Source: Candidatus Poriferihabitaceae bacterium (GTDB lineage: Bacteria > Pseudomonadota > Gammaproteobacteria > Arenicellales > Poriferihabitantaceae). From it: a stretch of 64,000 bases of DNA. This document shows, piece by piece, positions 28,068-50,335 of the stretch (the first letter of the stretch is position 1; each line of letters begins with the position of its first letter). The stretch is taken from the NCBI GenBank assembly GCA_965203265.1, contig CBDBBV010000002.1:2072207-2136206 (forward strand), read 5' to 3'. The position numbers were made by a program, and so were the translations under genes. Below the pieces are notes generated by a model. That model was not told where the DNA came from. It worked only from the letters and a program-made list of their open reading frames with translations, and made no database searches.

Positions 28068-28499
28068 TCAGCGCCAGCCGAACAGCCACAACAGCACCAC
28101 ATAGCGCGCGAATTTCCCCACGGCGATCATCGCCGCGCTCGGCCAGAATCCGAGGCGAAGATAGCCCGCGGCCAGACACAACGGGTCGCCCACCAACGGC
28201 ATCCACGAGAACAGCAAACAGGGCGCCCCCCAGCGCCGGACGCGGTCGAGGGCGGGTTGTTTCAGTTGGAAGTGGCGACCCCAGGAGACGCGGGCGAGGC
28301 CGCGCCCAAGCAACAACCCGGCGGCGTAGGTGATGAGGCCGCCGAGGGTATTGCCGGCGGTGGCCGTGGCGAGTAGCGAGAGCGACGAGTGGTTGCCGGA
28401 TTCGACCAGAGCGTACAACAGTACTTCGACGCCGCCGGGCAGGATGGTGGAAGCGAGCAGGGAGCCGACGAACAGGGAGATGAGAGCGGCCGTCGTCAT
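28068..28499 (-). CDS. YqaA/DedA (SNARE-associated) membrane protein
   Basis: LASTILPGG.E, GNTLG, W.PLVGDPL..AAG.LR. Confidence 0.88.
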   Translation of the reverse strand: MTTAALISLFVGSLLASTILPGGVEVLLYALVESGNHSSLSLLATATAGNTLGGLITYAAGLLLGRGLARVSWGRHFQLKQPALDRVRRWGAPCLLFSWMPLVGDPLCLAAGYLRLGFWPSAAMIAVGKFARYVVLLWLFGWR

Positions 28500-28605
28500 G
28501 ATGGGGTGGGGTTGCAGGGGCCGGGGGTCAGGAGCGTGTAGCGCACGAAAATATAGGGAATTACATACTTAATTCCACCCAAGATAAACAGGGTAAAATA
28601 AAACG

Positions 28606-29763
28606 ATGATCAGAACCTACGAATACCGAGCGCTACCGCAAAAGGGCCAGGGAAAGCGCCTGCTGTCTCTGCTCGGCATGACGCGCGGATTGTACAACGC
28701 GGCGTTGCAGGAGCGAATCGACTGCTACAAACGGACTGGGCGGGGGGTTTCGTACTACGACCAATGCAAAAGTTTGACCGAGATACGCTCATTTGACGAA
28801 GGGTGGCGCGAGCAGTCCGCCCAGATAGGACGGGGCGCGCTGACGCGATTGGACAAGGCGTTCAAGGCGTTTTTCAAGGGTTTCAAGGAAGGTTGTGGTT
28901 TCCCAAGATTCAAGGGGAGAAACCGCTGGCGGAGCATCGATCTGGAGAAAGTCTATCGGATAGAAATCGGCAACGGGAATTGGCGATTTCTCTCGTTCAA
29001 GGGGATGAATGGCCGCCTGCGCGTCTACTTCCACCGCCCATTGCCAGCCGAAGCAAGGCAGAAATACGCTCGGTTGGTGCGGGACGCGAAAGGTTGGAAA
29101 TTGCAGTTGGTACTGGAATTGCCGGATGCGGCCAGCGTTCCGGTTTCCGACATGATGGGAATCGATGTAGGGTTGACGCACTTCCTGACAACGGACACCG
29201 GCGAACAGATACCGAATCCGAGATGCCTGCAACGGGAATTGAAACGGCTTCGCGTAGCGCAGAGGTCGCTTGCGAGAAAGCTGCGCGGCAGCGGAAACAG
29301 GGAGCGGCAACGGAAAGTAGTAGAACGACTGCACTTGCGGGTGCGGAATCAGCGAGCAAACTTCCACTGGCAGGCGGCGAAAAGGTTGGTGGAGCAAGGC
29401 AAGACGCTGATTGTCGAGGACTTGAATGTGAAAGGCTTGGCGCGTGGGATGTTGTCGCGGCAGGTTTCGGATGTAGGGTGGGCGGCTTTTGTCGAACGGC
29501 TGACTTGCAAGGCTGAAAGTGCTGGCTTGGCAGTGATGAAAGCTGACCCGAAACAGACTTCGCAGATGTGTTCCGGCTGTGGTGCGATTGTGAAAAAGTC
29601 GCTGGCGGTTCGTGTCCATTCCTGCCCAGAATGCGGGTTGGTGCTGGACAGAGACAGGAACGCGGCTGTGAATATCAAGAAAAGGGGCGGGAATGCTCCT
29701 TTGGGCGCTAAGCTGGGGGTTGCTCCGGTTTGCCCGCAAGTGCTTGTGGATTCAAGTATATAA
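28606..29763 (+). CDS. tnpB: RNA-guided endonuclease TnpB
   Basis: FPRFK, RuvC-I GIDVG, RuvC-II IVEDL, CSGC/CPEC zinc finger, RuvC-III DRDRNAA. Confidence 0.95.
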   Translation: MIRTYEYRALPQKGQGKRLLSLLGMTRGLYNAALQERIDCYKRTGRGVSYYDQCKSLTEIRSFDEGWREQSAQIGRGALTRLDKAFKAFFKGFKEGCGFPRFKGRNRWRSIDLEKVYRIEIGNGNWRFLSFKGMNGRLRVYFHRPLPAEARQKYARLVRDAKGWKLQLVLELPDAASVPVSDMMGIDVGLTHFLTTDTGEQIPNPRCLQRELKRLRVAQRSLARKLRGSGNRERQRKVVERLHLRVRNQRANFHWQAAKRLVEQGKTLIVEDLNVKGLARGMLSRQVSDVGWAAFVERLTCKAESAGLAVMKADPKQTSQMCSGCGAIVKKSLAVRVHSCPECGLVLDRDRNAAVNIKKRGGNAPLGAKLGVAPVCPQVLVDSSI

Positions 29764-29768
29764 TTCCC
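29600..29768 (+). ncRNA. Putative omegaRNA overlapping the tnpB 3' end (5' boundary is a guess)
   Basis: Position typical for TnpB; nested hairpin gggcg..gctgggg-gttg-ctccggt..tgccc at 29703-29735. Confidence 0.5.
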
Positions 29769-29812
29769 AAAATATAGCATAATGCGCCCTCGGCTTTGGT
29801 GGGAGCAGGCAG

Positions 29813-30568
29813 TTGAAGAAATACCGCGACAATGCGGTCGATCTCAGGCACTCCGTGGACTTGGCATTCTGGCAAAAGCCCGAGGGCGTAACCGTGCCGG
29901 ACGACGAGCTGAGCTTTTTGCTGGTGCCCGATGCGGTGGTGGCGGCGGCATGTTTTACTCTAGCCAAGCAGGTTCACGCCTATCAACGCGCGCACGCCGG
30001 CAGCCGAGCGCAGATCACCAAGGCGCTGATGGTCACCATGGGCGGGTTGTTGCCCAGCGTCATTCTGTATGACCATCTGGTCGAAGGGCGGCGCGAAAAC
30101 ATTCCCAAGATCGAATTCGGCACCATCGGCCTGTCGCTGTACAAGGGGCCCGGGGAGCGCTACGAGAATCCGCTGATTCAGCACGGCATATCCATCCCCA
30201 TCAGCGGCCAGAGCGTGCTGGTGATCGACGATCTCGGCGACGAGGGCGGCACCATGCAATTCGTCGCCAAGTACATTCGCGACAGCGGCGCCCACCGGGT
30301 GTTGAATCTGGCGATGTACATGAAGCCCAAGGCGATGGCGGTCAGCGGCGCGCAATTCTACTTCGGCGAAACGCCGCAGGATACTTGGATCATCACCCCG
30401 CGCGAACGGGTGGAAACGCTGGTGAAGCGGGTGCCCCTGTGGAAGCGGCGCGGCGCGTCCAGAGCGGAGTGTCGGCGTCGTCTGGTCGAGTTGATCGGCT
30501 ACAGCGAAGACGAGGTCGAGTACTACTTGCCGCGAGTCTACGATCAGGCGCCCTCGCCCTCACCCTAA
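29813..30568 (+). CDS. Type I phosphoribosyltransferase family protein
   Basis: VLVIDDLGDEGGT PRPP-binding motif; TTG start uncertain. Confidence 0.8.
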   Translation: MKKYRDNAVDLRHSVDLAFWQKPEGVTVPDDELSFLLVPDAVVAAACFTLAKQVHAYQRAHAGSRAQITKALMVTMGGLLPSVILYDHLVEGRRENIPKIEFGTIGLSLYKGPGERYENPLIQHGISIPISGQSVLVIDDLGDEGGTMQFVAKYIRDSGAHRVLNLAMYMKPKAMAVSGAQFYFGETPQDTWIITPRERVETLVKRVPLWKRRGASRAECRRRLVELIGYSEDEVEYYLPRVYDQAPSPSP

Positions 30569-48478: not shown

Positions 48479-48590
48479 GTTGGACTCCTCCAAAGAGAAC
48501 CTATTCACCCACGGTAGCGGTTGTGCGAGCGGAAAAGCAGGCTTTTCTGATGGCTCATAAAAATCGGGAATTACATACTTGACACAGCAT

Positions 48591-48725
48591 TCATTTATGC
48601 AACTGCCCGCCGCCCTCTTTCGGGCGGCGTTTCTTTGTGTCCTTGCGTTTCTCTTTCGGCTTGAATCTCACTACCCTATCCGCAATATGGTCAAGGGCGT
48701 TCTGGTCGAACTTCGGGTCGTTCAC
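48591..48725 (-). CDS. Small basic ORF downstream of the IS1595 transposase
   Basis: GTG overlaps the tnp stop; NDPKFDQNALDHIADRVVRFKPKEK... Confidence 0.5.
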   Translation of the reverse strand: MNDPKFDQNALDHIADRVVRFKPKEKRKDTKKRRPKEGGGQLHK

Positions 48726-49648
48726 TTGATCAAATCCGCGTAGGTCAGCCGCTTTCCGACTGCTTGCCCAATCAGGCTATCCAGCCTATCGAGGGTGTGC
48801 CGCTTCACATTCCCGTCATTCAGCCGGAAAGTGAATTCGTCCACATACCGCCGCAAGTGTTTCGTGCTCATCTGGTGGTAAACCCCGTTGTAGCCGCGCT
48901 TCAGCACCGCCCACACGCTTTCAATCCCGTTCGTGTGCGCCATGCCGTTGACAAACTCCTTTGCCGAATGCCTGACCGTCTTGTGGCGGTAGGCGCTGGC
49001 AAGGCGGGAATATCCGCTATATTCGTCAGTGTAGACAGTCGCTCCGGGTTCGACAGCGCTACCTATTTCGCGGTTTATGGTTTCCGCCGTAGCATTGGGA
49101 ACAGGCTTTGCCTTCGTTTTTCCGCCGCGCTCTCGCATCCCAAGAACCGGCTGCTTGCCTATCATTCCCCGCCCCAAGCGTTTTTTCTTGGATTCGTGCT
49201 TGTTTCTCTCGCTTCCGCCGATATAGATCTCGTCTACTTCAACCGAGCCGGAAAGGGATTGCAGGTCATTCCCGCAAATCTCACGCAGCCGATGAAGCAA
49301 GAACCAAGCGCTTTTCTGCGTAATCCCGACTTCCTTTGAAAGCTGCAGGCTGGATATTCCCTTCCTACTGGTTTGAAGCAGATACATCGCGTACAGCCAC
49401 TTGTCGAGGGGGATATGCGAGCGCTCGAATATTGTGCCAACCCGAACAGTGAATTGCTTGCGGCAATCCCCGCACTGGTGCACGATCGGGCGAGAAACCA
49501 ATCTGTGATTGTGCTTGCTCCCACAATGCGGGCAGGTGATTCCATCCTTCCAGCGGCGAGATTCCAAGTACTTGGCCGCCGAGTTTTCGTCAGGGAATCT
49601 CTTGAAAAAGTCGAAAGCGCTGATGGTGGATTGGCAATTTGCCGTCAT
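48722..49648 (-). CDS. IS1595-family (ISXO2-like) DDE transposase
   Basis: CPHC..CGDC zinc ribbon, VEVDE, YTDE, HTNGIES.W, YVDEFTFRLN. Confidence 0.95.
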   Translation of the reverse strand: MTANCQSTISAFDFFKRFPDENSAAKYLESRRWKDGITCPHCGSKHNHRLVSRPIVHQCGDCRKQFTVRVGTIFERSHIPLDKWLYAMYLLQTSRKGISSLQLSKEVGITQKSAWFLLHRLREICGNDLQSLSGSVEVDEIYIGGSERNKHESKKKRLGRGMIGKQPVLGMRERGGKTKAKPVPNATAETINREIGSAVEPGATVYTDEYSGYSRLASAYRHKTVRHSAKEFVNGMAHTNGIESVWAVLKRGYNGVYHQMSTKHLRRYVDEFTFRLNDGNVKRHTLDRLDSLIGQAVGKRLTYADLIK

Positions 49649-49696
49649 GTCTACAGCCCGTTGATTGCTGGAATTGCAGATACTATCTTGGTATCA

Positions 49697-50335
49697 TCAA
49701 TTCGCTGGCCTTGCGATCGGCGGCATAGTGGTAATCAAACGCCGAGCCGGAAATATGTGGTCAACGCCAGTCTCACGCGAATCATCCCGCGCATTGTAGG
49801 AATCATCTATGCAACGATAAGTGTGCGGGGGTTTCAATTTCCAGTCCCATTTTTTCCCGTCATTGAAGGAGTACCGGATTTTCCACGAAAAAACATCTCG
49901 GTCGAGTATATCATCCGCACTTGGATCCCCGCAAACGGCAAATGAAAGGCTATGACCCTCTATCACTTCTTGGGCGTATTCCGAAATGAGAGCCAGCTCG
50001 TACCCCGGTGGTGGGACCTTACCCGGCGGCAATAGTTCCAGGGTGGGGTAGTGGCTACCCCAACCCCTCGTGTCCAGCCCGTTGGTATTGTAAAGGGTAG
50101 CGGCATGGATGGGGAAAGAGCATTTATTTCTTACGATGACATGAGCGTGATAATAAGAATGTAATTCCTCGTCGTACTCTGTAAGAGTAATACCATCGAC
50201 TTCGAGATCATGGTCGACTTCGATTTCTAAGCAGTGCCGGGCATCATACCCCCGTTCGTGTTTAGCGAAGGCCGCCGGGGAAAAAAGAAAAGCGAGTAAA
50301 AGCGCGAGTATCGAACGCTTGATAATTGAGTACAT
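49697..50335 (-). CDS. Hypothetical secreted protein
   Basis: RBS cagga; signal peptide ending SPAAFA; four Cys. Confidence 0.65.
   Translation of the reverse strand: MYSIIKRSILALLLAFLFSPAAFAKHERGYDARHCLEIEVDHDLEVDGITLTEYDEELHSYYHAHVIVRNKCSFPIHAATLYNTNGLDTRGWGSHYPTLELLPPGKVPPPGYELALISEYAQEVIEGHSLSFAVCGDPSADDILDRDVFSWKIRYSFNDGKKWDWKLKPPHTYRCIDDSYNARDDSRETGVDHIFPARRLITTMPPIARPAN

Follow-up and report, generated by a model that had tools for sequence, protein, structure and literature searches.

The DNA analysed here, hereafter the window, is a stretch of 64,000 nucleotides from the genome of a Candidatus Poriferihabitaceae bacterium (assembly GCA_965203265.1, contig CBDBBV010000002.1, positions 2,072,207 to 2,136,206 of the forward strand). 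It contains a 1213-bp unit (28556-29768) in which a gene for the RNA-guided nuclease TnpB is enclosed by terminal inverted repeats resembling those of IS1595-family insertion sequences (ISs). The left repeat, GGGAATTACATACTTAATTCCAC (28556-28578, + strand), and the right repeat, GTGGATTCAAGTATATAATTCCC (29746-29768, - strand; reverse complement GGGAATTATATACTTGAATCCAC), match at 20 of 23 positions when the ends are compared by eye, and a perfect 8-bp duplication, AAAATATA, lies on both sides of the unit (28548-28555 and 29769-29776). The left flank reads ...cgcacg, with CG as the base pair directly 5' of the left duplication (28546-28547), and the right duplication is followed by gcataat. The sole long open reading frame (ORF) with a family match in the unit is tnpB (28606-29763, + strand), whose ATG is spaced 27 bp from the left repeat and whose TAA stop codon (29761-29763) falls inside the right one. 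A preliminary description of this DNA had reported just this arrangement, with an intact tnpB as the only gene of a 1213-bp unit, 20/23 repeats, a perfect 8-bp duplication, the 27-bp spacing and the stop codon within the repeat, and the sequence and its coordinates, Pfam matches and an alignment with the TnpB of ISDra2 bear it out. Neither the ORF list nor Pfam revealed a DDE transposase ORF with an IS1595 domain inside the unit, so it could belong to the IS1595 family only as a non-autonomous derivative. A small palindrome (GGAATTA...TAATTCC) lies in the left repeat, and the right end can form a hairpin; the unit has inverted repeats and duplications instead of the asymmetric hairpin ends of IS200/IS605 elements of the IS1341 type, and is not one of these.

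The predicted protein is an intact, 385-residue TnpB with a helix-turn-helix (HTH) domain, the RuvC residues D187, E271 and D350, and a CxxC..CxxC zinc ribbon. It matches the Pfam families OrfB_IS605 (8.8e-24), Cas12f1-like_TNB (4e-21) and HTH_OrfB_IS605 (6.2e-08), and over its whole length it aligns with the solved structures of ISDra2 TnpB (8bf8, 8exa and 8h1j; E 8e-40), with D187, E271, D350 and both CxxC pairs in place. The RuvC triad and the CxxC...CxxC motif were invariant in six aligned proteins.

Copies, duplications and empty sites

The preliminary description had suggested looking for further copies with different 8-bp duplications, and for an empty allele between the neighbouring yqaA-like and phosphoribosyltransferase-like genes that carries AAAATATA only once. 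Both turned up. The 2.295-Mb assembly holds five copies of the element (A to E, the window's being copy A), each with its own 8-bp duplication; four of these are perfect (AAAATATA, ATTTTATC, AATAAAAC and AAACTATA) and one matches at 7 of 8 positions (TAGCCAAA/TAGTCAAA). The copies fall into two types by the inner part of the repeat, which ends in ...TAATTCCAC in A, B and C and in ...CTTGACAAG in D and E, where the ATG follows directly. Homology between the copies spans exactly the ORF, and the tnpB stop codon lies within the repeat in three of the five. All five tnpB ORFs are intact and differ pairwise by 7-11%, and TnpB is under purifying selection, with ratios of nonsynonymous to synonymous substitution (dN/dS) of 0.12-0.22 at a dS of 0.20-0.31 among these copies.

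The yqaA-like and phosphoribosyltransferase-like genes adjoin without the element in genomes of the same genus. The empty allele reads ...GGGCGTG AAAATATA GCATAAT in one of these genomes (G149) and AAAATACC GCATAAT in another (G148). We also aligned contigs of public sequencing runs to the window. A 5133-bp contig from a sponge metagenome (run X5), whose flanks are about 95-97% identical to the window, joins position 28547 to 29769 and thus skips exactly 1221 bp (1213 + 8), so that the duplication is present once, as it is in the empty alleles of G149 and G148. A contig from a marine metagenome (run X4) skips 1246 bp and has 32 other letters in between. Loose contig ends from public runs carry right flanks with no counterpart in this genome. 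The empty alleles and the skipping contigs show that the element is present in some close relatives and absent from others. The unit is thus a transposon, and its insertion creates 8-bp duplications.

The insertion site itself, AAAATATAGCATAAT (29769-29790), lies immediately upstream of the phosphoribosyltransferase-like gene and resembles a -10 region. The element may have cut this gene off from its promoter, or may provide read-out transcription. For the element itself, a sigma-70 promoter scan of 28450-29850 returned no sites.

IS1595-type ends and a candidate transposase

The first 15 nt of the left repeat, GGGAATTACATACTT, recur without a mismatch at 48566, as the preliminary description had noted, and with one mismatch at 29754 on the - strand, within the right repeat. 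At up to three mismatches the motif has four matches, against 0.55 expected, and 1 of 100 shuffles reached four. The match at 48566 belongs to one end (GGGAATTACATACTTGAC, 48566-48583, + strand) of the genome's only IS1595-family element, which shares 15/15 nt with the tnpB unit. Next to this end lies an ORF for a 308-residue IS1595-family DDE transposase (48722-49648, - strand), the only copy in the assembly (one tblastn match) and our candidate for an enzyme acting in trans. It is full length by Pfam (DDE_Tnp_IS1595, 1.2e-45, profile positions 2-153 of 153; Zn_ribbon_IS1595, 9e-13) and aligns with its homologues over residues 1-308. The earlier claim of an intact transposase at this place therefore stood, and the claim of an element around it did so in part, as no convincing second end was found. 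A candidate for that end at 50155-50169 (two mismatches, with a 14-nt match at 50155-50168) was rejected: it lies within an ORF and its flanks, TAAAAATC and CGTCGTAC, differ. The ORF in question (49697-50326, - strand) adjoins the start of the transposase gene, encodes a clear N-terminal signal peptide and has no Pfam match; we regard the 14-nt match as chance. The IS1595 element (48566-49700) may itself be immobile and may still supply transposase.

The architecture of the repeats is that of autonomous IS1595-family elements. Three of these from the same order (L057, L059 and L062) are 1229-1298 bp long, make 8-bp duplications and have GGGAATTAT...TTGACAAG repeats, for example GGGAATTATATATTTAAGTTGACAAG. 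The repeat of copies D and E shares this architecture, with a match of 21/26 between the left repeat of D and L057 (by eye). A Hyphomonadaceae metagenome-assembled genome (MAG), G243, makes an independent and stronger case. It holds an autonomous IS1595 element of 1487 bp, whose repeat matches at 26/26 positions and whose duplications (CAAAATTA and AATTTTAG) are perfect, together with 21 full-length tnpB units of 1728 bp whose ends match those of the autonomous IS at 21/26 and 22/26 positions (by eye), including an inner TTGACAC box. Altogether, nine of nine autonomous IS1595 copies (seven in genome G120 and two in G243) have duplications that match at 8/8 positions, and these are AT-rich. The ISNwi1 subgroup of ISfinder has similar ends and sometimes carries passenger genes.

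Among 243 genomes of the order, 77 have an IS1595 transposase (E<=1e-20) and 17 a TnpB homologue (E<=1e-30), 14 of which also have the transposase; the count is descriptive, since related genomes are not independent.

A putative guide RNA ending with the right repeat

In the canonical relatives of this TnpB, a terminal hairpin and a 9-nt tail, AGUAGUCAC, precede the guide. The window's unit has a comparable end. The 3' part of a putative omegaRNA scaffold (29681-29768, + strand) comprises a hairpin (29681-29702), a helix (29703-29735), a terminal hairpin (29740-29759) and a 9-nt tail, ATAATTCCC, and the right repeat supplies the 3' arm of the terminal hairpin. The last ~90 nt fold alike in copies A, B and E, into two hairpins within the ORF tail and the terminal hairpin with its 3' arm in the repeat, after which comes AUAAUUCCC.

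The pairing is conserved. RNAalifold, run on the five copies and the G148 homologue, gave 44 pairs, eight of which are changed on both sides, compared with 2.6 in shuffles (0/500 reach eight) and 0-2 in slid controls. In a second large clade, represented by 15 sequences, pairing reaches 97.2% in a CGGG/CCCG hairpin and a 6-bp long-range helix, which show 20 compensatory cells, compared with 4.8 in shuffles (0/500 as high) and 1-4 in slid controls. After the helix come an AGAACAG motif, a hairpin to which the repeat contributes, and the same tail. Both sets of counts should be read with the caveat that the structures were derived from the very sequences tested. A search of Rfam (E up to 1) with 28400-29950 returned no omegaRNA match and one chance match to a microRNA family. 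We infer that the last ~90-130 nt of tnpB encode an omegaRNA whose scaffold stops where the right repeat does. If it ends there, its guide would be transcribed from the flank and would start in the duplication, so that the right duplication (29769-29776) and about eight or more of the bases that follow would form the guide. The position of the guide in the canonical relatives and the asymmetry described next both point to a guide from the flank.

A one-sided TG beside the left duplication

The two bases before the left duplication are biased in many copies. In G243, where copies within the one genome are not independent, the duplications match at 7/8 positions or better in 16 of the 21 copies; these 16 all have G at -1, and at -2 they have T in 14 and G in two, which gives TG in 14/16. 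G is found at -1 in all 21 copies, and there is no mirrored CA after the right duplication. Several full copies in G243 share one flank only (L175/L178 and L183/L187), as expected from recombination between copies, and of these four only L178 is among the 16 scored. Other genomes provided 24 copies with duplications at 7/8 or better (16 of 25 loci in one set and 8 of 12 in a second), with TG in 12/24 and G at -1 in 16/24; on the mirrored side TG was found in 0/24. The nine autonomous IS1595 copies have TG on 0/18 sides and G at -1 on 3/18.

The duplication itself tends to AAA-N-TTT. With a T-rich base at -3 and A/W at its positions 1 and 2, there is room for a TTGAW-like motif; the target-adjacent motif (TAM) of ISDra2 is TTGAT according to the portions of a 2026 review available to us (PMC13565253). 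In the occupied site the position of such a motif reads ...TTCCC. A symmetric DDE transpososome should yield a symmetric preference. In an emptied site, a guide starting at the right duplication would find just these bases of the left flank in the place of its TAM. The one-sided TG looks like a TAM, and we treat it as a candidate.

Proposed mechanism and alternatives

The reading that we favour, with a probability of roughly 0.7, is that the unit is a non-autonomous IS1595-type element that is mobilised in trans and carries TnpB and the gene for its guide RNA, and that TnpB re-cuts sites from which the element has been lost if they contain the TAM. It builds on the multi-copy unit and its 8-bp duplications, its presence and absence in relatives, ends that match IS1595, selection on TnpB and the conserved RNA pairing. 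An IS1595 transposase, here perhaps that encoded by 48722-49648, would cut and paste the tnpB unit. The 3' region of tnpB up to the end of the right repeat would provide the omegaRNA, with its terminal hairpin and tail AUAAUUCCC, and the guide would be read from the flank, its first bases being the target-site duplication. Precise loss of the element would leave one duplication and thereby restore a site made of left flank, duplication and right flank. Where TG, the proposed TAM, closes the left flank, TnpB would cut this restored site, and recombination with the sister chromosome would reinstate the element. The occupied site would be spared because ...TTCCC occupies the position of the TAM. 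Copies beside a TAM would be kept and others vacated, and this would account for a TG bias on one side only.

A more specific form of this idea is that the whole TnpB lineage has been rewired for a DDE transposon, such that the IS1595 repeat took the place of the last part of the omegaRNA scaffold, the guide starts in the duplication, the TAM (TG, perhaps TTGAW extending into the duplication) lies in the left flank and TAM-flanked sites become sticky: a precise loss there would be re-cut and repaired from a sister copy, whereas copies elsewhere would be vacated when the element next hops. We put this forward tentatively and hold it to be somewhat short of an even bet. If true, sticky sites would account for the one-sided bias even in the eight youngest copies in G243 (99-100% identical), all of which have TG; that observation fits a ratchet of selective retention and would also fit a bias at insertion. 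Bolder still, recognition of the TAM by TnpB might help to choose the insertion site.

Several observations weigh against the mechanism. The TG bias is not universal (12/24 outside G243), and in the genome studied here it is a tendency, with CG beside the window's copy and TT, GG, TG and TG beside the others. In the G149 empty allele of the window's site, GTG precedes the duplication. The control set is small (nine autonomous copies) and comes from other IS subfamilies. Because the five tnpB copies diverge by 7-11%, recent activity in this strain is not demonstrated. The only IS1595 copy in this genome has no convincing second end and no duplication by an inverted-repeat search and by comparison with an IS of the same genus (L038), and three TnpB-positive genomes (G148, G136 and G194) show no IS1595 transposase at E<=1e-20. 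As for the RNA, dS is not consistently lower in the ORF tail than in codons 1-320, and in minimum-energy folds of the 65-nt ends of 21 elements the number of pairs between repeat and interior (10.5 at the right end and 9.7 at the left) does not discriminate between the two ends. Finally, the break left by DDE excision can already be repaired by recombination, so a benefit of TnpB assumes that precise rejoining is frequent; the same objection is raised in the available portions of the review (PMC13565253).

Among the alternatives, the one that survives best is that TnpB is a passenger which does not act on its own insertion site and is kept for regulation, defence or targeting elsewhere. The partial TG bias outside G243 and the CG beside the window's copy are what one would find if this were so, and the homologue in G148, which lost the repeats and adjoins an array resembling clustered regularly interspaced short palindromic repeats (CRISPR), indicates that the protein can work in other settings. 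A passenger leaves two features to be accounted for, however. The covarying RNA structure runs into the right repeat and abuts the flank, as it does in the canonical relatives, whose guide comes from the flank, and the one-sided TG sits exactly where the TAM for a flank-derived guide would be and is missing from IS1595 copies that lack TnpB. We consider this explanation unlikely.

We give somewhat less credence again to the proposal that TG is a target preference of the transposase, acting through an asymmetric transpososome, rather than a TAM; TnpB could then be guided by the flank and still not shape which copies persist. Within the tnpB units the two repeats do differ slightly, the eight youngest G243 copies would have had little time for selective loss, and the autonomous copies used as controls are few and of other subfamilies. 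Yet the autonomous IS in G243, with near-identical repeats, is flanked by TC/CT and GA/CC, without TG in either of its two copies, TG is also missing from all seven G120 copies, and the bias recurs across divergent clades of tnpB units with different inner repeats. A one-off nesting of an IS605/IS1341-type tnpB element in a miniature IS1595 derivative is very improbable: the palindrome of the left repeat and the hairpin of the right end could pass for IS605 hairpins, but an ATG directly after the repeat (copies D and E) and a stop codon within it (three of five) leave no room for IS605 ends, the combination of hairpin and AGTAGTCAC that ends canonical relatives is absent here, and the arrangement is repeated in many genomes and three phyla.

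Distribution and origin of the lineage

The tnpB units with IS1595-type ends form a lineage and not a single case. A scripted search found GGGAATTAT-type ends (at least 11/14 positions) lying at the ORF in 22/25 order-level and cross-phylum loci, and canonical IS605 ends were confined to sister clades; the nested IS605 ends that the preliminary description had named as a possible refutation were thus not what these loci contain. Such ends, mostly with matching 8-bp duplications, were found with the multi-copy homologues in G091, G111, G115, G114, G108, G187 and G090 and with the single-copy homologues in G136, G121 and G163. In this order, nearly all TnpB homologues sit within IS1595-type ends, and so do relatives in Alphaproteobacteria and Acidobacteriota. 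None of the tnpB units of the lineage that we examined contains a transposase gene.

Wider searches gave fewer examples. In a collection of 185,579 species genomes, 15 of the 80 best loci had the motif on both sides; 12 of these come from G243 and the remaining three from one Terriglobia, one Bryobacterales and one Acidobacteriaceae MAG. The repeat pair was seen in 1 of 80 metagenome loci with 34-43% identity (L272, repeat 20/20, duplication 3/8), a test limited by flanks of 400 nt on short contigs. A tblastn search of a plasmid collection returned 51 records, all below 60% identity, and the two loci inspected (Bosea and Azospirillum) lack IS1595-type repeats. The remaining relatives, among them those of Deinococcus, Ktedonobacteraceae, Methanothrix and Latescibacterota, show the canonical anatomy of IS605, without inverted repeats or duplications: their right end is a hairpin and AGTAGTCAC followed by variable flank, and the left boundary lies at TTAC or TTAT.

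We built a tree of 82 rows, after 17 loci had been dropped by an ORF filter, one (L007) had been added back by hand and 10 near-identical Hyphomonadaceae rows had been removed. On this tree the presence of repeats requires four changes, compared with a mean of 23 for shuffled labels (0/500 shuffles as low). A tree that holds the repeat-bearing rows together with the four rows nested among them was not significantly worse (log-likelihood difference 0.92, approximately unbiased (AU) test p 0.456); as this group was defined after viewing the tree, the p value says only that one origin is compatible with the data. A single ancient capture from an ISDra2-like IS605 TnpB is possible on these grounds.

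The units vary within the lineage. In two units of G108 (L011 and L026; 1854-1866 bp) a stretch of about 226-228 bp from the right end, with the presumed RNA region in it, recurs in inverted orientation at the left end. Two miniature derivatives in G243 (G243:C1, 1893209-1893766 and 1605748-1606305) have no tnpB and keep positions 1-448 and 1614-1728 of the 1728-bp unit. In the full G243 unit, tnpB is separated from the left repeat by a leader of ~360-470 nt (L107, 1035-1500) that holds no convincing ORF; this leader is 27 nt long in the window's unit and missing from copies D and E.

The closest TnpB homologue outside this genome, L007 in G148 (G148:C1, ~1090370-1091784), belongs to the same genus, is 65% identical and 382 residues long, and lacks IS1595-type repeats. 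About 40 nt past its stop codon begins the CRISPR-like array, with four exact repeats and one degenerate repeat of 36 nt, a period of 66, and unique spacers of 29-32 nt. The repeat folds into a hairpin (-14.2 kcal/mol) and is found nowhere else in G148 or in the genome studied here. Neither cas genes nor an anti-repeat were found in the 4.1-kb locus, and the spacers have only chance matches of 13-17 nt in this genome. L007 may be a TnpB en route to a minimal type V system.

Relation to known systems

Associations of prokaryotic TnpBs with DDE transposases are already in print. The main text of Altae-Tran et al. (2023, PNAS, PMC10691335) describes them for a 'DDE-6' branch of IS630 and for ISL2 and IS1031 of the IS5 group, and reports solo TnpBs with the same ends that are suggested to be mobilised in trans. 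The available portions of the 2026 review name ISL2, IS630 and IS1031, and discuss why such pairings should be rare in prokaryotes (PMC13565253). Only the pairing with IS1595 therefore appears to be new. It is absent from the main text of PMC10691335 and from the list in PMC13565253, and we did not find it elsewhere in the literature; the supplements of PMC10691335, which lay outside our search, may list such a branch and would then make it less novel. The elements described here resemble the published ones in that TnpB lies within symmetrical inverted repeats, the 3' end of tnpB is near the transposon end and mobilisation of solo TnpBs in trans has been proposed. They differ, going by the same portions of these two sources, in that the whole lineage is non-autonomous and in the documentation of duplications, empty sites, RNA covariation and a one-sided TG. 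The TG beside the left duplication is itself new here.

Compared with solo-tnpB elements of IS200/IS605 (the IS1341 group) and ISDra2, the protein family and the domain order are shared, as would be a 3' RNA with terminal hairpin and 9-nt tail, whereas subterminal hairpin ends and the 4-5-nt target of a Y1 transposase are replaced by inverted repeats and 8-bp duplications. With autonomous IS1595 ISs the unit shares the architecture of the terminal repeats and AT-rich 8-bp duplications; unlike these, it has tnpB as cargo, no transposase gene and a one-sided TG at its insertion sites.

The preliminary description had also proposed a bacterial parallel to the capture of Fanzor nucleases, which holds as an analogy, although the general idea of TnpB in DDE elements was in print before (PMC10691335, PMC13565253, within the portions cited above). 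Fanzor1 and Fanzor2* occur in eukaryotic transposons with terminal inverted repeats, including a non-autonomous SfAV element that encodes only a Fanzor (Yoon et al., 2023, NAR, PMC10711439, in its accessible portions). As in the elements described there, a non-autonomous unit with repeats and duplications carries the nuclease as its sole gene, and a terminal repeat would form part of the guide-RNA scaffold, with the RNA running into the flank. The differences are the bacterial host, an ordinary 385-residue ISDra2-like TnpB, and the place of the duplication: it is proposed to lie within the scaffold for Fanzor (PMC10711439, same portions), while here the position of the TG suggests that the guide starts at the first base of the duplication or at most 2 nt from it.

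The role of an RNA-guided nuclease in a transposon that already leaves a double-strand break at excision is treated as unresolved in the available portions of PMC13565253, where the same break-at-excision argument is used to explain the rarity of prokaryotic DDE-TnpB pairings. Annotation by gene neighbourhood misses such pairings when, as here, the transposase is encoded elsewhere in the genome. This lineage offers a compact bacterial test case, with 1.2 kb, one gene and many natural copies, in which genome sequences directly show the ends, the duplications, the empty sites and a candidate TAM. By analogy, it is the prokaryotic counterpart of Fanzor capture by eukaryotic transposons with terminal inverted repeats.

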